Positions 9,332-21,490 of a stretch of 24,000 bases of DNA are shown here, in pieces. Position numbers and translations under genes: made by a program. The DNA lies in the NCBI RefSeq assembly GCF_003585885.1, contig NZ_NRHC01000040.1:1-24000 (forward strand), in the 5' to 3' direction. The notes below the pieces were generated by a model, which saw nothing but the letters and a program-made list of their open reading frames with translations, made no database searches and had not been told where the DNA came from. The DNA is from Psittacicella hinzii. GTDB taxonomy: Bacteria > Pseudomonadota > Gammaproteobacteria > Enterobacterales > Psittacicellaceae. The stretch's first letter is position 1. Each line of letters begins with the position of its first letter.

Positions 9332-9367
9332 AAAAAAGTCTAGGTAGAAACTAACCTAGACTTTTTT
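9332..9367 (-). terminator. matP terminator hairpin (GTCTAGGT / loop / ACCTAGAC) flanked by A6 and T6
   Basis: Perfect 8-bp stem. The matP stop codon (9356-9358) lies inside the stem. A T-run follows the hairpin on the minus strand. Confidence 0.7.
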
Positions 9368-9781
9368 ATATGATTCTAATTTTTCTTTATCAACAAACTT
9401 TTCTAACAATAAAATAGCTTCGCTTAAGCTAACACCTTTAGCTGTTGAAAGTTCTGATAAAACTTTCCAAGCTTCATATTCTAAAAATACGCTCTTTTTA
9501 GCATATAAAACTACTTCATTGTCATCAGCTCTTTTTCTTCGAGCACGTACAGCCATATCTAGCTTTTTAACTAAATCTGGGTTTAAATGCTCTTCTACCC
9601 ATTTTTCGATTTGCTCTGGATACTCTCGTGAATTTATTAATTCTAAAGAAAACTGTCTAACCATTTCTTGTTCTATATACTTGGTTATGTTTTCCCCTTT
9701 TTGGTATTTAGAATTTAAATAATTCCATTTCCATTTAGCTTCACGTACAGGGAGCTTTTGATGTTTGCGATATTTCTTCAT
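9356..9781 (-). CDS. matP: Macrodomain Ter protein MatP homologue, 141 aa
   Basis: [23 protein letters not shown] aligns with E. coli [43 protein letters not shown] aligns with [32 protein letters not shown] aligns with RGKTLSETIVQLI. Confidence 0.85.
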   Translation of the reverse strand: [141 protein letters not shown]

Positions 9782-13454: not shown

Positions 13455-15494
13455 TTAACGAGTTAATCTAATTACAAGTTCATTTACAAATGAATTTCCT
13501 TTACCAACAACTGATAAGGCTGTTTCATTTTTAGCTGTAGGTGTTACACAAAGTTCACACATGCTAAATACAGCACCATTGTTAGCTTGTTCAAATTTTA
13601 AAGCTTTATATGCGGTTGCTGATAAACTAAATTCTTGTCTTGCTTTGTAATCTGCAAAAGCGTTAATCTCTGAATTTAGGGTAGCTAATAAAGAACTATA
13701 AGGTGAAGACTCTGGGTTAGCTTCGTATTTAACTATAGCTGTTGCGTCAAAGTTTTCATCTTTTTCTTTATTTAACTTATCTAGGTACTCATAAGCAACT
13801 TCTACGCCACCAAGAGCATCTACTAGTTTTACCTCGTAAGCATCTTGACCAGTGAAGATACGACCTTGGTCAACTTTAGCTAATTGTTCAGGAGTAAATG
13901 ATCTCGCTTTAGCTAAGTTTTCAACTGCAGTTTCATATTGTCCTAAAGTTACAACTTTACGATATTCTGCAAATTGCGGAGAAACTAAAACACTACTACC
14001 ACTCACCACTAAATTGAATGGGAAAGGTAAATTAGCACCAGAAGTTACTAACTGTGAACCTTTAAAGTAAGATGGGTTCATGTTATAGAAAGCTCTTAAA
14101 GCATCAGTAGAATCTATTAGATTTGATGAAGCGTTTACCCCACCTACTGGTACATATTTAGAAGCAACAATTGCGTCAGCACCAGTTGCAGCTAAATAAG
14201 CTGAACCAAGTAAACCATCACCAGTTAATACTACTACCGGAACTCCAGATTCTGAAACTTTTCTTAAAGCACTGTATAAAACTTGTGCTTCAGGTAAAGT
14301 ACCACCAATCGAATCTAAACGTAAAACAATTCCTTTTACTTTACCCTTACCTTCTTTTGGTGCTTCAGCTAAAACTGTACGATTTAATAACTCACTGGCA
14401 ACACTATTAGCATCTACATCTGCTCCAGTTTGCCCGTAGAAACCTGAATAATAGTAAGTTAAATAATAGTCTTTTGTTGAGTAATCAGTTTTATCTTCAC
14501 TCTTAACAACACGAAGATCTGATAAATATTCATCTAAGTAAACTAGATTTGGATACTTATCTTCATCAATACCCGCTTGATCACGTAAGTAATCACCCCA
14601 TTGGAAACGAGTTACAGCTTTATCAAATAAACCTCTTTCAACAAATAACTCTGCTTCATTTTTTAAAGTGTAAGCATCTGCTACTAAAGACTCAACTGAG
14701 AATAGTTCTCTTGGTTTTAAAGATACAGTTTTATCTTTAAGAATTGCAGTTCTTGTTTTACTAAAATCAGCAAAAGCATAATCTACAGGTTTATAAGTAA
14801 TAGACTCTAACGAGAATTGATTATCTTCTGTAAATGAGTTTTGTACTCTTAGAGCTGAAAGACCATATTTACCTGCTTGGAATGAGTAATCTTTAATACC
14901 GTAGTTTTCATAAAAATCTTTTAAGAAAACTGCAGATACAGAGTTACTTAAATAAGGACTACCAACACGATCAGTTACTAAAGTATCAGCATGTTGTAAA
15001 GCAACAAAGTCACCTACTGACCAGTATCTTGAATAACCAATTACTGGTTTTTTATTCTCAGACTCTTCTTTGAATTTTACAATTGCACGATCTAACTCTT
15101 CGTGGATACCAAAAGTTTCAAAAGTTGCGCGTTCAACATCAATTACGACACCTTTAATACGCTCATCTTTAGCTGCAGCTTCTAAAACTGCACGTAAATC
15201 TCTAATTGAAACTTGGCTTGGTAGATCTACCCCAAGATTTACTGCTAGGTTATAGTAACCTGGAAGACGTAAAGACTTTTCAGTTACTAACTCTAGGTCT
15301 AAATAAAGATATTTCTCTCCTGTAAATCTTTCATCTACAGAAGCAGTTAAAGTTTTTGTGCTTTGGCTTAGGTATAGAACAAATACTACAACTAGCAGAC
15401 CAAATACTGCAAATAGAGTAAATACAACCCATGATAAAGCCTTATAAACATACTTTACCAATAGCCAAATTGCAAATAATAATTTCTTTATCAT
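13455..15494 (-). CDS. Divergent SppA-like (signal peptide peptidase A, 67K type) paralogue; start revised to the Met at 15494 (679 aa)
   Basis: Two-domain SppA architecture with an N-terminal TM segment. Blocks IKGVVIDVE and VKGIVLRLDSIGG...VPVVVLTGDGLLGSAYLAA parallel SppA. The ATG at 15494 has GAGG 8 nt upstream and lies 1 nt after the upstream stop. The track start at 15533 has no SD and overlaps the upstream gene by 38 nt. Confidence 0.75.
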   Translation of the reverse strand: MIKKLLFAIWLLVKYVYKALSWVVFTLFAVFGLLVVVFVLYLSQSTKTLTASVDERFTGEKYLYLDLELVTEKSLRLPGYYNLAVNLGVDLPSQVSIRDLRAVLEAAAKDERIKGVVIDVERATFETFGIHEELDRAIVKFKEESENKKPVIGYSRYWSVGDFVALQHADTLVTDRVGSPYLSNSVSAVFLKDFYENYGIKDYSFQAGKYGLSALRVQNSFTEDNQFSLESITYKPVDYAFADFSKTRTAILKDKTVSLKPRELFSVESLVADAYTLKNEAELFVERGLFDKAVTRFQWGDYLRDQAGIDEDKYPNLVYLDEYLSDLRVVKSEDKTDYSTKDYYLTYYYSGFYGQTGADVDANSVASELLNRTVLAEAPKEGKGKVKGIVLRLDSIGGTLPEAQVLYSALRKVSESGVPVVVLTGDGLLGSAYLAATGADAIVASKYVPVGGVNASSNLIDSTDALRAFYNMNPSYFKGSQLVTSGANLPFPFNLVVSGSSVLVSPQFAEYRKVVTLGQYETAVENLAKARSFTPEQLAKVDQGRIFTGQDAYEVKLVDALGGVEVAYEYLDKLNKEKDENFDATAIVKYEANPESSPYSSLLATLNSEINAFADYKARQEFSLSATAYKALKFEQANNGAVFSMCELCVTPTAKNETALSVVGKGNSFVNELVIRLTR

Positions 15495-15495
15495 A

Positions 15496-17472
15496 TTATT
15501 GGCCTCGTATTGCAGATAAATGTTCTTCATCAAGGATAGCTTGATATGTACCTAAAGTTTCTTGGTTATCACCAGCGATGTAATTATTTAATTTATTAAT
15601 TACGCCACTAAAATAACCACCAGTTACATAGTCTATTGAGCTTAACACACGACTACTTAAAGTTACGCCAGTGATAGAGTAACGACGTCCTGCATTGTAA
15701 TAGATTACTGGTAATTTATCGATCTCTTCAAGATCAACTTGAGTATATTCACCACGTGAATATTTATCTTCAGTACGCTCACCTTGACCTAAAACAATAA
15801 ATTCACGTGCTTTGTTGATAGCTTCAGAAACATTACCAAAACTATCAACTAGTCCTAAAGTTTTAGCATCTGTACCGCCCCAAATATGCCCTTGAGATAC
15901 GCGGTGTACATCTTCTAAAGAAGCAAATTTATCTTTACGTCCTTCATAAACCATTGAAATAAATTCATGGTATGAATTAGCAATACCAGCTTTCCATAAA
16001 TCTTTTAGTTCGTCACCATAAGGGTTAGTCCAACCTGCAAAGAAGAATGGAACTCTGAATGGACCTGCGTAATATCTGTCGTAACCAACTGCATCAGTGT
16101 GGATATTAAACTGTTCTAAGAATCTATTTAAGTTGTAACCACTGATTACCACCCCTATAGAACCTGTTAAAGTAGTTGGGTTAGAGTAGATATAGTCACT
16201 TGAAGATGACATCATGTAACCCGCAGAAGCTGCTAAAAAGCCTTGAGATACTACTACAGGAATACCTTTAGAGCGAATGTCATTAATCGCTTGACTAATT
16301 GTTATACCTGTATTTGCCGAACCACCAGGTGAGTCAATACGTAATACAAGTGCTTTTACATTATTTGCGTTGTAGTAAATTGAACGTAAATATCTTAAAG
16401 TATTATCATTTGAAATTACGTCTGGAGCTCTACCGCTTGATACTACACTACCCACTAAAGCTACGTAAGCAATGTGATCTTTATTTCTGCTTGCGCTTTT
16501 GAATAATGGGTTTTCAATTGCTGAAGTATAACTACTTAAAGCAAAATAGTTAGGTAACTTACTATTGTTTTTCTTACCTTGAATTTCATTAGCTACTAAA
16601 GCATCAAAATCTGCTTTAGTTACTACACCATCAAACCAGCCTTTTTCCGTAAATGCTTGTGCAAAATTACCTTTGTAAGTTTTGAATAAACCTAATAACT
16701 CTTCATCGTTTAGGTCAAACTCACTTAATGGTAGACTGTAGTTTTGCGCAACTGCAGATAAGGTATCTAGGTAGATTTGATAATAAGCATCAAAAGATGA
16801 TTTAACATCTTCATCTACTTGGTATTTTACGTCACGTAAAATTAAATCTTTATATAAAGATACACGTTGACCTAAAAAATCAACTTTAAATTTATCGTAG
16901 AAACCTTTATAGAAGGTTGCACCGTAAATTGGTCTTACAGGTCTAACAAATGCACCCGGAGCTACGTATCTTTTTGTAGCTGCTGAAGAGATTAGTAATT
17001 CGTTGTTAGTACCAGTTGATTGAACATAAACGTATACCGGCTTACCTGCTTCTCTTACCTGTAATAAAGCTTGAGAAATCTCATAAGCCTGTGCGTTATT
17101 CCATTGACGTCCATTAATGGTAACAACTACACCTTTAACTTTATCATCTTGAGCTGCTTGTGCTAAAGCATAAACTTGCTCACTGAATGAGTAACGACTG
17201 CTACGCGAACTCGCAAATAAATTAGCCCAGCGACTAGCACTAGTTCCATAAACTGAAGTTTCATTTATTTCATCTGAACCTAAAGTTAATAAAACAACCG
17301 CATTGTCAGGGGTTGAAGATCTACTTGGAGACTGTATCTCAGTATATTTATCGAATAAAGCAGTAACTGTTAAAAAGAGTAATACTCCTAGAACTGCATA
17401 TACGTTAAAGACAACCGAGATAAAAAACTGTATTGCAGCCCAAATCTTGCAAACTGCGCCTTTTAAACTCAT
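15496..17472 (-). CDS. sppA: Signal peptide peptidase SppA (protease IV), 67K type, 658 aa
   Basis: N-terminal TM segment. ALVLRIDSPGGS, IPVVVSQGFLAASAGYMMSS (Ser nucleophile context AAS-x-GY), TLTGSIGVV and QGHIWGGTDAKTLGLVDSFG all match E. coli SppA blocks from memory. Confidence 0.85.
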   Translation of the reverse strand: MSLKGAVCKIWAAIQFFISVVFNVYAVLGVLLFLTVTALFDKYTEIQSPSRSSTPDNAVVLLTLGSDEINETSVYGTSASRWANLFASSRSSRYSFSEQVYALAQAAQDDKVKGVVVTINGRQWNNAQAYEISQALLQVREAGKPVYVYVQSTGTNNELLISSAATKRYVAPGAFVRPVRPIYGATFYKGFYDKFKVDFLGQRVSLYKDLILRDVKYQVDEDVKSSFDAYYQIYLDTLSAVAQNYSLPLSEFDLNDEELLGLFKTYKGNFAQAFTEKGWFDGVVTKADFDALVANEIQGKKNNSKLPNYFALSSYTSAIENPLFKSASRNKDHIAYVALVGSVVSSGRAPDVISNDNTLRYLRSIYYNANNVKALVLRIDSPGGSANTGITISQAINDIRSKGIPVVVSQGFLAASAGYMMSSSSDYIYSNPTTLTGSIGVVISGYNLNRFLEQFNIHTDAVGYDRYYAGPFRVPFFFAGWTNPYGDELKDLWKAGIANSYHEFISMVYEGRKDKFASLEDVHRVSQGHIWGGTDAKTLGLVDSFGNVSEAINKAREFIVLGQGERTEDKYSRGEYTQVDLEEIDKLPVIYYNAGRRYSITGVTLSSRVLSSIDYVTGGYFSGVINKLNNYIAGDNQETLGTYQAILDEEHLSAIRGQ

Positions 17473-17654
17473 ATTGTACTTTCCTTTAGATCAAAATTAT
17501 TTAGAAGTTGTTTCTTTTTAATCTTAATACTTAAAATGCAGTGCTTTTTTATTATTAGAAATAATAAAAATTTTTTAGTGCACCTTTTTATGTTATATCA
17601 CATATTTATAAGATTGTTAAGACTAAAAAGTAAAAATACTCAAATTTCTCATTT

Positions 17655-18914
17655 CTAACCATTAATGTAGTTAGTAATTACAACTTCTAAAGTTCGAGTG
17701 GCAAAACTTTCTTCTTCGTTATTCCCTTGAATAAAGTTTATATTAAAACGATTACTATGACACCAATCTAGCAGGCGATAATTATATTTTCCTTGGAACT
17801 GAATAAAGGTAGAAACAGCAAAACGTAAGCCATTTTTATTTAAATCCTCAAGGAAAGAATATAATTCTGCTTCTAAGTCAAAACTCCAAGAGTTTTGTAA
17901 ATCATCTTCATTTAACACGCAAGGCGGATTAAAATAAAGAAATGCCTGCTCTTGGATTAATTGGTTAATATCTAAATCACTAAAGTTATTTTCGGCAAAA
18001 TCTATATGCTTACTATTTAACAGATTTAAGTAATCCTTGTATCTTTCTCGTACTTTAATACTAAAATCTCGTTTACCCACAGGTAAATTGAATAAACCTT
18101 TATGGTTAAAACGAGCAAAGTTATTAAAGCCGTAGATGATTAACATAATCACACGAATAAGCATATCATCGTTAAAAACTAGTTTAGGGGTATGCTCTTT
18201 TGTTGCATTTTTGATTTTTAAACTTTCTTGCCCCTCTTGCTTATTGCCATTGACTGACTGCAAGTAGTTTTTAACCTTCAATTGATTTAATAAGTGATTA
18301 TAGTCACTACGTAAATTTAAGTATGGTTCACGATTATAATCACTTAAACCATCATTGGAGTTTGAATTGTAGTAAGCGTAACCAAAAGCCGCAGAGTTAG
18401 ATAAACCATAACGTTCTGCAAGAAAGTCTAACTTTCTCGCTAACTCTTCATAAGTGTGGCGTTGCAAGTATTTTAAAATTTGCACATGGACTGAATTAGT
18501 ATCTAAGCAAACTATTACTTTGGCGTTAGTATTAACTCCAACACTACTCGATCCAGAAAAAACGTCATAGAAAAAGTTAACATCTTTAGGAAGCAACTTT
18601 AAAATCTGCTCCATACTAGAGACCTTAAGCCCATTTACAATGTAAGGAGATGGTATTACGGTCTTACTTACTTTTTCTACCTTTACTTCCTCTTCAGGAA
18701 GATCAAATAAAGGAATAAAACTGTATTGTTGCTCAGTCTTTTTCTTTTGATGCTTTTCTTCTAAAAATGTCAATGGAGGCGACTTGTAGTTAGCCGGCAC
18801 ATTGATATTTTCAGGTACGTACAGTAAGTAATCGATATTTTGGTCATACTTAGCTATATTTACAGGAGTAAATAACTCGGCATCAATGAAGTCATCATTA
18901 TCAAATGCACTCAT
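17655..18914 (-). CDS. Dam-family (MethyltransfD12-like) DNA adenine methyltransferase homologue with atypical motifs, 419 aa
   Basis: FYDVFSGSSSVGVNT aligns with Dam LVEPFVGAGSVFLNT. IMLIIYGFNNFARFNHKGLFNLPVGKR aligns with [29 protein letters not shown]. Motif IV reads FLYFNPPC (codons aat ccg cct tgc) instead of DPPY. The start lies 2 nt after the xseA stop. Confidence 0.7.
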   Translation of the reverse strand: MSAFDNDDFIDAELFTPVNIAKYDQNIDYLLYVPENINVPANYKSPPLTFLEEKHQKKKTEQQYSFIPLFDLPEEEVKVEKVSKTVIPSPYIVNGLKVSSMEQILKLLPKDVNFFYDVFSGSSSVGVNTNAKVIVCLDTNSVHVQILKYLQRHTYEELARKLDFLAERYGLSNSAAFGYAYYNSNSNDGLSDYNREPYLNLRSDYNHLLNQLKVKNYLQSVNGNKQEGQESLKIKNATKEHTPKLVFNDDMLIRVIMLIIYGFNNFARFNHKGLFNLPVGKRDFSIKVRERYKDYLNLLNSKHIDFAENNFSDLDINQLIQEQAFLYFNPPCVLNEDDLQNSWSFDLEAELYSFLEDLNKNGLRFAVSTFIQFQGKYNYRLLDWCHSNRFNINFIQGNNEEESFATRTLEVVITNYING

Positions 18915-18916
18915 CT

Positions 18917-20752
18917 TTAAAATTCACTATTGTTTTTTAATTTCGCTAGATTTGCTTTTAAAGCTAAGATTTTTTCTTGAGAAACTAAATTCTGTAAATT
19001 ATGCTCTTTGTCGCTCTTACCTTTTACTTGGGCTTCTAAACTACCATCTTGCATTAATAAAGTAAAATTATTTAGTTTTTCAACTTGAGAGATTGAAGTT
19101 ACAACTTGTTGCTCTTGATCTAAAACCATAGCATAACCTCGTGACAGAGGTAATAGAGGATTACTTACTTCAACTCTTTGTAATAAGTACTCTAGTTCAT
19201 TAACTTTAGTCGCAAATTGACGGTTAGCCAAATATTTTATTTGATTTTCTAGATAGCCGATGTCTTTAACGTAAGCTTCAAGCTTACTTAAAGGTTGCAG
19301 ACGCATAACTTGGTTACGTTTTGCTTGCCAATCGTATTCCTTTTGCCAAATCTGATTTTTATACAAAGTCTCTAACTTTGCTGTTAATTCATTTAATTTG
19401 GTATTTCTTACTGACAAGGAATTAGTATAAATATAATCTAACTTTAAAGCTAAATCATTTATGATTTTTTGATCTCTTTCTAAAAGATAGCTTGGGTTAA
19501 AACGTTTAACTTTTTCTTGGAGTAAATTTACTTGGTTTTCTTTTTGTTTCCAACTAATTACTAAAACTTGGTTTATATCTTTATTAGCTTGCTCAAGACG
19601 GTTTAATTTATCTTGCCAATAAAAAGTATACATACGGTTTAACTGATACTCTAACTCTGTAAAGTAATTAAAGTAGTCTGCTATTTTTCTAGAAGGATCT
19701 AGGTATGATAATCTTTGGTCTAGTTGATTAAGCTGATGGTTTTTGAAATCAAATAAACCATTTACCAATGAGTTTAATTGATTTAAAGCATTATTTACAT
19801 AATCTCTGACACGTAAACGCCAAATTGTAATGTGCTTAGCTGCAGCCGTAGGGGTCACACAAGCGTAATCGGCAACTAAGTCGGTTAAAGGATTATCAAC
19901 CTCATGTCCTACTGCGGAAATAGTTGGGATTTTTGAAGCTAAAATAGCCTTAACTAATTCATAATCAGAAAATGCTAACAGATCCTCAAAAGAACCACCT
20001 CCACGTCCAACAATCAAGACTTCACACTTATTTTCTGCATTTGCCGTGGCTAGAGCTTCAATTAAAGAAGCTACCGCATTATTACCTTGGACATTAGCGT
20101 CATAAATGGTGATCTCAATATCTGGCGCTTCTTCTCTAAAAACCTTGAGCATATCCTGTACCCCAGCAGCTTTAGATGAAGAAACTATCCCTACTTTGAG
20201 AGGAAATTGAGGGATTGCACGTTTACGTTCAGGACTGTGCCAACCATTTTTTACAATTTCTTGTTTTATACGTTCAATTCGAGCTAATTGTTCACCAATT
20301 CCTCCAGCAATACGCATACGTCTAATATTTAGTTGCATACTACCACGTGGATTATAAACAGTTAACTCACCATAAACTTCTACTGTTGCCCCTACCTGAA
20401 AATCTTCTACACGACAACCTGTAGACTGGGCAAACTCACGAAAGCTAGTTTGGTAATTCCAAACATTGGCATTAATTATGGCATCTTCTTCAGTATCTTT
20501 AAGAGTTAAATAAGAGTGCCTACCTGAATGTTTTATACTTGAAATTTCTGCGATTAAGTACACTCCCCAGTAACGTTCATTAAAATGGCTTTGCACTTTA
20601 TTTAAAAATTGAGCTACTGATAGAGGCTTTATTTTGCGTTCAGGTTTAACTTCTTCAACTTCTATTTGATTAAAATCTAATTCAAATTCCATAAAATTTG
20701 TTCTCTTAGCAATATTCGGAGGGGAACATTTAAATATTATAGCTTGTTTCAC
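18917..20752 (-). CDS. xseA: Exodeoxyribonuclease VII large subunit, unusually long (611 aa from the GTG; 591 aa from the ATG at 20692)
   Basis: OB-fold and catalytic core blocks match E. coli XseA (YLTLKD, VYNPRGSMQLNI, GIVSS..AAG.QD, CEVLIVGRGGGSFEDL, ISAVGHEVD, TPTAAA, NPLLPLSRGYA). The GTG start codon region contains GCTATAATA (a TATAAT-like box), so the ATG at 20692 is an alternative start. Confidence 0.85.
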   Translation of the reverse strand: MKQAIIFKCSPPNIAKRTNFMEFELDFNQIEVEEVKPERKIKPLSVAQFLNKVQSHFNERYWGVYLIAEISSIKHSGRHSYLTLKDTEEDAIINANVWNYQTSFREFAQSTGCRVEDFQVGATVEVYGELTVYNPRGSMQLNIRRMRIAGGIGEQLARIERIKQEIVKNGWHSPERKRAIPQFPLKVGIVSSSKAAGVQDMLKVFREEAPDIEITIYDANVQGNNAVASLIEALATANAENKCEVLIVGRGGGSFEDLLAFSDYELVKAILASKIPTISAVGHEVDNPLTDLVADYACVTPTAAAKHITIWRLRVRDYVNNALNQLNSLVNGLFDFKNHQLNQLDQRLSYLDPSRKIADYFNYFTELEYQLNRMYTFYWQDKLNRLEQANKDINQVLVISWKQKENQVNLLQEKVKRFNPSYLLERDQKIINDLALKLDYIYTNSLSVRNTKLNELTAKLETLYKNQIWQKEYDWQAKRNQVMRLQPLSKLEAYVKDIGYLENQIKYLANRQFATKVNELEYLLQRVEVSNPLLPLSRGYAMVLDQEQQVVTSISQVEKLNNFTLLMQDGSLEAQVKGKSDKEHNLQNLVSQEKILALKANLAKLKNNSEF

Positions 20753-20902
20753 TAAACAACTGGCTAAATTCTCTCTAAAGTGATAAATTTTTGCCTCTAG
20801 TTTTACCTATTTTAGGAATAACAAAGTTAAATCTTTTTAAGCTTTTGAAGCTTGATTAACTTCTTCCAGCTAGTTAATAAATCGTTATTTCTTTCTAAAG
20901 TA

Positions 20903-20911
20903 TGCTACAAT
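20903..20911 (+). promoter_or_regulatory. Extended -10 promoter candidate for def (TGcTACAAT)
   Basis: TG at 20903-20904 and TACAAT at 20906-20911, 36 nt upstream of the def ATG in the divergent xseA/def intergenic region. Confidence 0.4.
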
Positions 20912-20947
20912 AAATGCCGACAACAGAGCTAACATTTTTCGAATTTT

Positions 20948-21490
20948 ATGTCTGAACAAAATGTAAATATTATTGAAATCTTTGACGTGGTAATCTACCC
21001 TGAAGATATTTTACGTACTCGTGCGAAAGAGTACACTGAAGAAGAATTTGGTCAAGAACTACAAGATCTTGGCAAGAAAATGCTTGACACTATGTACGCT
21101 CATGAAGGCATTGGTCTAGCAGCTAACCAAATTGATCTAGATAAACGTATTATTGTAATTGATGTATCTGAAGATAAAAGTAAACAGTACATTATGATCA
21201 ATCCAGTAATCACTCACCAAGAGGGTGAAACTGCTATTGAAGAGGGATGTTTATCTGCGCCTAATGTACGTGACTTTGTTAAACGTGCAGAGAAAGTTAC
21301 TTGTGAATACTATGATCCACAAGGTAATAAACATACCATTGATGCTGATGGTATCCTTGCTATCTGTATTCAACACGAAATTGACCACTTAAATGGTATT
21401 ATGTTCTTTGATCATTTAGAAACTTTCAAACGCAACCAAGCGCTTGAAAAAACAATGAAATATAAGAAAAAATTAAGTCGTTTAAAATAA
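20948..21490 (+). CDS. def: Peptide deformylase
   Basis: All three PDF motifs are present: GIGLAANQ, EGCLS, QHEIDHLNG. Confidence 0.95.
   Translation: MSEQNVNIIEIFDVVIYPEDILRTRAKEYTEEEFGQELQDLGKKMLDTMYAHEGIGLAANQIDLDKRIIVIDVSEDKSKQYIMINPVITHQEGETAIEEGCLSAPNVRDFVKRAEKVTCEYYDPQGNKHTIDADGILAICIQHEIDHLNGIMFFDHLETFKRNQALEKTMKYKKKLSRLK

Follow-up and report, generated by a model that had tools for sequence, protein, structure and literature searches.

In one branch of the Gammaproteobacteria, the genes dam, seqA, mutH and matP are co-distributed (PMC4255302). Escherichia coli Dam contacts DNA through residues K9, Y119 (intercalating), L122, R124 and P134, and motif IV of these enzymes, (S,N/D)PP(Y/W/F), builds the target-base pocket (PMC10073500). 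METTL14 is non-catalytic and carries an eroded motif IV, EPPL (PMC7544214). The present analysis concerns a Dam-like gene, called damL here, in a 24,000-nucleotide stretch of the Psittacicella hinzii assembly GCF_003585885.1 (contig NZ_NRHC01000040.1, positions 1 to 24,000; hereafter the window). Psittacicella is a bird-associated genus. Motif IV of the damL protein reads N-P-P-C, and the original prediction, made from the sequence of the window, left three alternatives for it: a functional variant, an inactivated methylase retained as a DNA-binding protein, or the only Dam of the genome. Regional conservation favors an inactivated or weakened DNA-binding methylase over a functional variant; sequence alone is insufficient to settle the choice. 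Our tentative explanation is that damL encodes a catalytically weak or dead GATC-type DNA-binding protein, domesticated from a restriction-modification (RM) methylase and working with exonuclease VII (ExoVII) and mismatch repair.

The damL protein, its orthologues and motif IV

The gene and its principal motifs are as follows (residue numbers are those of the damL protein).

17655..18914, reverse strand: damL, Dam-like gene; open reading frame including the stop codon, 419 amino acids (aa); PF02086 match, T4 Dam fold
17919..17930, reverse strand: motif IV, residues 329-332, N-P-P-C (AAT CCG CCT TGC); D-P-P-Y in 27/27 relatives
17895..17900, reverse strand: residues 339-340, L-Q in place of the family-invariant Y-N, seven residues past the motif IV Tyr
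18540..18566, reverse strand: motif I, residues 117-125, D-V-F-S-G-S-S-S-V; D117, F119 and G121 kept
18624..18650, reverse strand: motif X region, residues 89-97, S-P-Y-I-V-N-G-L-K (consensus S-P-L-N-Y-T-G-N-K); S89, P90 and K97 kept
18060..18149, reverse strand: DNA-reading beta-hairpin region, residues 256-285, G-F-N-N-F-A-R-F-N ... L-P-V-G-K-R-D; aligns with T4 Dam 104-133

The homology to the Dam family (D12 class) claimed earlier holds. The damL protein scores 52 bits against Pfam PF02086 (D12), above the cut-off of 22, and among proteins of solved structure phage T4 Dam matches it best (E 1e-17). An AlphaFold2 model built from a 32-sequence alignment (mean predicted local distance difference test score, pLDDT, 84; predicted template modelling score, pTM, 0.83) matches T4 Dam with a target-normalised template modelling (TM) score of 0.85-0.88, and E. 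coli Dam and DpnM with scores of 0.74-0.82. The protein lies below the Dam-specific NCBIfam cut-offs (TIGR00571, 63 vs 115; NF008152, 15.5 vs 441), and its best PADLOC profile is MTase_II PDLC03383, a Type II RM methylase profile, at 207 bits, well above the orphan-methylase profiles.

Both sequence departures named in the original prediction, NPPC at motif IV and the degenerate N-terminal motif YIVNGLK, are present at the positions listed above. N-P-P-C falls outside the motif IV definition (D/N/S)-P-P-(Y/F/W). Cys332 is not a sequencing error, because two other species have Cys with a different codon (TGT) in independent assemblies; the D-to-N change at residue 329 (AAT) occurs only in the window genome, which is one assembly. 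Downstream of motif IV, residue 339 is Tyr in 27/27 relatives and residue 340 is Asn in 26/27. A literature search on the role of T4 Dam Tyr181 returned unrelated papers only, so it is solely the 27/27 conservation that suggests a role for Y339. The family Tyr of motif X (26/27 relatives) is Val in the window protein. Motif I reads F-S-G-S-S against F-x-G-x-G; position 122 is Gly in 27/27 relatives, Ser in the window protein and Ala in its orthologues, and such small residues might still permit binding of S-adenosylmethionine (AdoMet). The AdoMet-side residues D117, F119, G121, N128 and D138 (the last in motif II) are retained. The DNA contacts of E. coli Dam have damL equivalents at K97 (K9), F263 (Y119), F266 (L122), R268 (R124) and P278 (P134), and G-K-R-D is retained where T4 Dam has G-K-R.

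Orthologues of damL are present in 4/4 genomes of the genus in the genome library and in 0/27 other families of the order. The closest proteins are those of Psittacicella melopsittaci (59% identity), P. gerlachiana (58%), a P. hinzii-labelled genome (49%) and one metagenome assembly (39%). Among 1.84 billion representatives, an exhaustive HMMER scan gave two full-length damL clusters only and nothing of full length from outside the clade; a profile built from the five-orthologue alignment likewise found no orthologue beyond the five. The remaining matches align as two separate segments and lack both the N-terminal extension and the insertion described below. The next relatives (30-43% identity) are single-domain D12 methylases of ~310 aa and tandem ones of ~650-700 aa, of the Type II/IIS kind. 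Contig C104 of the window genome encodes a 695-aa tandem methylase whose C-terminal domain is the closest paralogue there of the damL protein (43% identity over residues 246-419).

Motif IV differs among the orthologues: it is DPPY in the P. hinzii-labelled genome, DPPC in two species, NPPC in the window and DQPE in the metagenome. Residues 339 and 340 vary in parallel, being Y-G in the DPPY orthologue, L-Q in the three Cys orthologues and I-E in the DQPE orthologue. Maximum-likelihood analysis groups the five orthologues in a single clade (100/100; long stem, 0.94) with the topology ((DPPY, DQPE), (NPPC, (DPPC, DPPC))), so the motif IV Tyr has been lost at least twice; the DQPE branch is 4x the length of its DPPY sister. 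Pfam D12 scores over the four orthologues from the genus are 81, 80, 68 and 50 bits, with the window protein the most eroded. It had been considered that NPPC homologues might prove common, and they did not: 242 of the ~255 instances of motif IV in relatives read DPPY, and DPPC occurs once outside the clade, where Y-N is retained. A literature search found no paper with DPPC alongside DPPY and methyltransferase.

Conservation was compared by region in two ways. An alignment of 27 relatives from outside the clade supplied 69 family-conserved columns (conservation of 85% or more), and identical columns were counted among three, four and five orthologues.

Whole protein: identical columns 50%/37%/25% in three/four/five orthologues
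DNA-reading hairpin, residues 256-285: 15/17 family-conserved positions kept by the window protein; identical columns 80%/57%/50%; the most conserved region
Motifs X, I and II: 12/15 family-conserved positions kept
Motif IV region, residues 322-345: 5/12 family-conserved positions kept; identical columns 46%/25%/17%, at or below average
18795..18875, reverse strand: N-terminal block, residues 14-40, N.AKY.Q..D.LL.VP....VP; identical columns 67%/63%/48%, or 13/27 columns in five orthologues against 25% overall
18171..18281, reverse strand: clade-specific insertion, residues 212-248; a gap in 27/27 outgroup homologues; pLDDT 65-71; identical columns 22%/14%/5%

The losses in the motif IV region are D324, D329 (to N), Y332 (to C), L333, I334 and Y339-N340 (to L-Q). 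The difference between the hairpin and the motif IV region has a Fisher p of 0.014, and that between the hairpin plus motifs X, I and II and the motif IV region a p of 0.008. Among ordinary relatives the two regions are about equally conserved (12/24 columns for motif IV, 17/30 for the hairpin). Because regional conservation in the clade differs from this pattern, selection guards DNA reading and the new N-terminal element more than the catalytic loop.

Synonymous sites are saturated in all pairs of orthologues (proportion of synonymous differences, pS, 0.63-0.80 over the whole gene and up to 0.87 in single regions), and for this reason pN and pS are given instead of dN/dS. The proportion of nonsynonymous differences (pN) is 0.23-0.42, with pN/pS ~0.3, and damL is under purifying selection. 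Between the window species and P. melopsittaci, protein identity is 59% for damL, 43% for XseA and 70-83% for Def, Fmt, SppA and MarC. These values bear on the suggestion that damL is a decaying RM methylase relic without function, or that NPPC is an assembly error. Erosion of the catalytic motifs would suit a relic, and these genomes hold many RM systems as a source. Its frames, however, are intact in five lineages at saturated synonymous divergence, it is more conserved than its neighbor xseA, its operon position and start codon are conserved, and Cys is found in three independent assemblies. Such a relic or artefact is very improbable, and already largely refuted.

A pocket rebuilt for another reaction or substrate (a different base or atom, or a base that is modified or damaged) must also be considered. 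The changes Tyr to Cys and Tyr to Leu would enlarge the pocket, and Pro-Cys would stand at the structural position of the nucleophilic Pro-Cys of C5-cytosine methylases. C332, L339 and Q340, together with the flanking PPC(V/I)LN..DLQ, are common to three species. The AdoMet pocket is kept, and branch lengths are ordinary. On the other hand, there is no evidence of other chemistry, and other C5-methylase motifs were neither looked for nor seen. The sister lineage has DPPY and another DQPE, so there is no common new active site in the clade, and the three show only average conservation in the motif IV region (46% vs 50%). Changed chemistry is quite improbable.

Dam, SeqA and MutH in Psittacicella

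The original prediction had named a second canonical dam, seqA and mutH as genes to look for. Of these, mutH was found, and neither canonical dam nor seqA was found in any of the four Psittacicella genomes, which are 86-92% complete. The best NF008152 scores in the four are 72, 44, 26 and 20 bits, compared with 329-474 bits in 21 other families of the order. Absence from one genome is weak evidence at such completeness; absence from four of four is not. The aroK-aroB-damX-dam arrangement is also missing: aroB (C79:2974-5026, L066) is followed by an overlapping gene for a 314-aa GNAT acetyltransferase and preceded by a divergent 786-aa esterase-like gene. This supports the absence of dam, although the 5-kb aroB contig ends soon after.

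Genes mutS, mutL, mutH and matP are present in 4/4 genomes. The presence of MatP in the lineage had been noted earlier, and matP is found inside the window itself.

9356-9781, reverse strand: matP, Pfam 82 bits

MutH matches the Haemophilus influenzae MutH structure at 171 bits, keeps the D..E-L-K catalytic residues and the C-terminal F-Y-L-R, and is intact in nine Psittacicella-like lineages, metagenomes included. It also has a ~55-aa clade-specific N-terminal extension, and the order lgt-mutH-parE is conserved in the nine lineages (L013:1303-2127, reverse strand, = C68). Open frames of the repair proteins (contigs C114, C131 and C68; G001-G003) span 971-1097 aa (MutS), 792-1089 aa (MutL) and 274-292 aa (MutH). 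The N-terminal ATPase region of MutL scores 413-444 bits, and the Pfam MutL_C dimerisation domain was undetected in the four genomes; the MutL C-terminus is either very divergent or replaced.

Elsewhere in the order (27 other families), a Dam match and MutH occur together in 22 families. MutH is missing from the remaining 5/27, of which four lack Dam and one has a dam broken by stop codons. In that family (G023), seqA contains three TAG codons, a pattern that suggests joint decay of the dam/seqA/mutH set. Another family (G005) has a weak Dam (142 bits), a weak MutH (74 bits) and no SeqA, and may be another lineage with a remodelled Dam/MutH pair. The GATC observed/expected ratio in the window genome is 1.01, which is uninformative. 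GGCC is strongly avoided there (0.25), which suggests long-standing pressure from a HaeIII-type restriction system.

The statement that damL might be the genome's only Dam does not stand as written, as six or more further D12 genes or domains occur in the window genome, on C19/C34, C29 (two), C104 (two domains), C34 and C13. It stands in the sense that damL is the only D12 gene common to all four Psittacicella genomes, which lack a canonical dam. The other D12 genes of the window genome all have D-P-P-Y, and all but the second C34 gene also match F-x-G-x-G/S/A; they sit in methylase or RM clusters and are not common to the four genomes. No N6_N4-family methylase that could serve as an alternative universal GATC methylase is common to the four genomes. 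One of the clusters combines an AlwI-family endonuclease, the 695-aa tandem D12 methylase and a divergent C5-cytosine methylase (C104:1253-6743; G000, L054). Another DPPY-bearing D12 methylase gene is apparently split over two contig ends (C19:11-622, reverse strand, and C34:2-265, forward strand), and a second D12 methylase and an N6_N4 methylase (C34:270-1412 and C34:5378-6367) adjoin it. C19/C34 looks like a methylase or RM cluster, and a GATC methylase confined to this one species could be among its genes.

These distributions bring in the explanation that damL is the working replacement Dam of the lineage, derived from an RM system, with an NPPC/DPPC pocket that is unusual but competent and maintains GATC methylation for MutH; perhaps the enzyme is slower, and its expression or an N-terminal extension that recruits it makes up for this. 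Several observations support it and weigh against the loss of catalysis that we favor. Psittacicella is the sole sampled exception to the joint presence or absence of dam and mutH in the order, and this order-wide pattern speaks for the existence of some GATC methylase; damL, as the only D12 or N6_N4 methylase gene in all four genomes, is the only genus-wide candidate. MutS, MutL and MutH are intact in 4/4, and the catalytic D..E-x-K of MutH is kept. In the damL protein itself, both motif IV prolines (P330, P331), the AdoMet-pocket residues, the hairpin and K97 are retained. Three species keep Cys332 (TGC and TGT codons) although synonymous change is saturated. The Cys clade shows no rate acceleration, with branches (0.19-0.33) of no greater length than the DPPY branch (0.27), and one orthologue still has DPPY. 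The retained pocket and prolines, Cys332 and the ordinary branch lengths fit a pocket still in use.

Against a working Dam, the stacking aromatic residue belongs to the definition of motif IV (PMC10073500), Y339 and N340 of the same loop are also lost, as are the motif X Tyr and the motif I Gly in the window protein, and among the orthologues no functional region is less conserved than that of motif IV. Activity of the DQPE orthologue is implausible, and still the gene has been kept, apparently together with an intact MutH. In mutants of E. coli Dam, M.TaqI and M.EcoRV, loss of the aromatic residue in motif IV reportedly lowers the reaction rate by orders of magnitude. The source of the DQPE orthologue, sample SRR29005952, also has an intact MutH in the lgt-mutH-parE arrangement; a shared sample, matching divergence rank and similar G+C, and not a common contig, link the two genes to one organism, which tempers our interpretation. 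If both belong to one organism, MutH is kept without catalysis by damL, and most of the force of the MutH argument is removed. On balance, we consider a working replacement Dam possible and somewhat unlikely.

Operon position and clade-specific extensions

Three further features concern the upstream gene and the N-terminal part of the damL protein.

18917..20752, reverse strand: xseA, exonuclease VII large subunit, 611 aa (PF02601, 279 bits, and an OB fold); upstream operon partner
18660..18914, reverse strand: clade-specific N-terminal extension, residues 1-85; missing from all relatives outside the clade (1.84 billion representatives)
18699..18728, reverse strand: linker motif F.PLF, residues 63-72; F66, L69 and F70 invariant; surrounding pLDDT <50

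The tight coupling to xseA reported earlier agrees with the coordinates: the xseA stop codon lies at 18917-18919 and the damL ATG at 18912-18914, which gives an intergenic gap of 2 nucleotides (nt). In 5/5 lineages (four genomes of the genus and one metagenome), damL follows xseA in the same orientation at a distance of 2-14 nt, within a conserved neighborhood rsmB-fmt-def / xseA-damL-sppA-sppA-marC. A scan of 17300-21000 found no terminator, and promoter-like sites were fewer there than in shuffles, so the operon structure rests on spacing and synteny. No endonuclease gene adjoins damL in any of the five lineages, the neighbors being xseA and two sppA genes. Because the xseA neighborhood is conserved and no endonuclease is nearby in five lineages, damL is a vertically inherited chromosomal gene and not a mobile RM module. 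Since xseB is present elsewhere in 4/4 genomes, a role for damL as a replacement of XseB is ruled out.

Directly downstream of damL come two full-length sppA genes in tandem that overlap each other (window 13455-17472, reverse strand), and the second copy matches Peptidase_S49 far more weakly than the first (45 vs 136 bits). XseA is 611-837 aa long in the Psittacicella clade, with a long extra C-terminal helical part (window 18917-20752, reverse strand; L014:3473-5986; L015:4096-5994). It is also fast-evolving, with 43% identity between two species in which Def and Fmt have 76-82%.

The extensions described in the original prediction are real, with two corrections: the N-terminal one is ~85 aa and not ~90, and only ~35 of the inserted residues are clade-specific. 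The mid-protein surplus over T4 Dam is ~60 residues, of which ~25-30 are common to ordinary ~310-aa relatives and ~35 (about residues 212-248) belong to the clade. This insertion is the least conserved region of the protein (pN 0.35-0.65). The N-terminal extension has a pN similar to that of the core, and the model has moderate-to-good confidence over residues 10-50 and disorder over residues 53-82. Long insertions and extensions are widespread in the genus (MutS, MutL, MutH and XseA), which tempers our interpretation: since lengthened repair proteins are general there, extension length is not evidence of function by itself. Conservation of block 14-40, the second most conserved region among the orthologues, does count as such evidence, unlike length. 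The F.PLF motif resembles a docking peptide, and a clamp-binding or XseA-binding role for it is speculation. An S-L-F in the N-terminal extension of MutH was considered as a docking motif common with F.PLF and rejected, as it is kept in 5/9 lineages only.

The sequence of events that we tentatively favor is that an orphan copy of an RM-type D12 methylase was fixed in the Psittacicella chromosome directly behind xseA, where it would be co-transcribed with xseA and translated probably by reinitiation. The protein would still recognise a GATC-type site and bind AdoMet, with methyl transfer to adenine very poor or nil, and sequence-specific DNA binding would be the selected function. The type of site is suggested only by the retained hairpin residues and by relatives that act on GATC, GGATC or GGATG. 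The N-terminal block and linker motif probably tie the protein to partners, for which ExoVII is the obvious candidate and MutH, MutL and the replication clamp are possible ones. Its role during strand excision and mismatch repair could thus be to mark sites or to serve as an adaptor, after the loss of canonical Dam and SeqA from the lineage. An explanation not considered here may also account for the data.

We regard as doubtful the further proposal that Psittacicella runs MutH-dependent repair without Dam methylation, with this pseudo-Dam supplying the GATC-site function by binding. In that case the protein could, for example, use its N-terminal docking block to mark GATC sites on nascent DNA or to pass them on, and ExoVII could be brought to the MutH nick. 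If true, the classic methyl-directed pathway would here operate in a form free of methylation. Bolder still, the Pro-Cys pocket might introduce a novel base modification, and this would provide the strand mark.

Comparison with known systems

The textbook set of Dam, SeqA, MutH and MatP is broken in Psittacicella: MutH, MutS, MutL and MatP stay, and Dam and SeqA are gone. If Cys can replace the stacking aromatic residue in an N6-adenine methylase, the motif IV rule needs widening; if not, MutH in Psittacicella uses a strand signal other than Dam methylation. Psittacicella is culturable, and DPPY, DPPC, NPPC and DQPE form a natural mutational ladder.

Phage T4 Dam (PDB 1yf3, 1yfj, 1yfl, 1q0s) shares with the damL protein the hairpin G-F-x-N-x-x-R-x-N ... 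P-x-G-K-R and the N-terminal G-x-K. It is a protein of 259 aa with D-P-P-Y and a downstream Y-N, whereas damL has N-P-P-C, L-Q, an 85-aa N-terminal extension and ~60 extra residues in the helical DNA-binding domain, and is chromosomal, in the xseA operon. The orphan Dam of E. coli type is likewise of the D12 class, with the same fold, equivalent DNA contacts and a genome that has mutH and matP. In contrast to it, damL is not an orthologue (NF008152), lies at another locus, has no SeqA beside it in the genome and lacks the aromatic residue of motif IV.

D12 methylases of the FokI/AlwI kind (Type II/IIS) share the expanded helical domain (L-S-x-S ... N-x-x-x-Y-x-L-R-S-D-Y-N). All 27/27 of these relatives have D-P-P-Y, S-N and a C-terminal Y-x-Y-x-S-x-S-Y-N, which the damL clade has lost or changed; the clade also has no nearby endonuclease and carries its own N-terminal extension and insertion.

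The damL protein has the pattern of a pseudo-methyltransferase, with an eroded catalytic motif (5/12) against a selected binding surface (15/17) and pN far below pS. In this it resembles METTL14 and the ciliate protein MTA9, which combine a methyltransferase fold and an eroded motif IV with selection for substrate binding (PMC7544214). Those proteins are beta-class MT-A70 members and obligate partners of an active subunit, whereas damL is of the D12 class, and no second D12 or N6_N4 methylase gene that might encode a conserved active partner is common to the four genomes.

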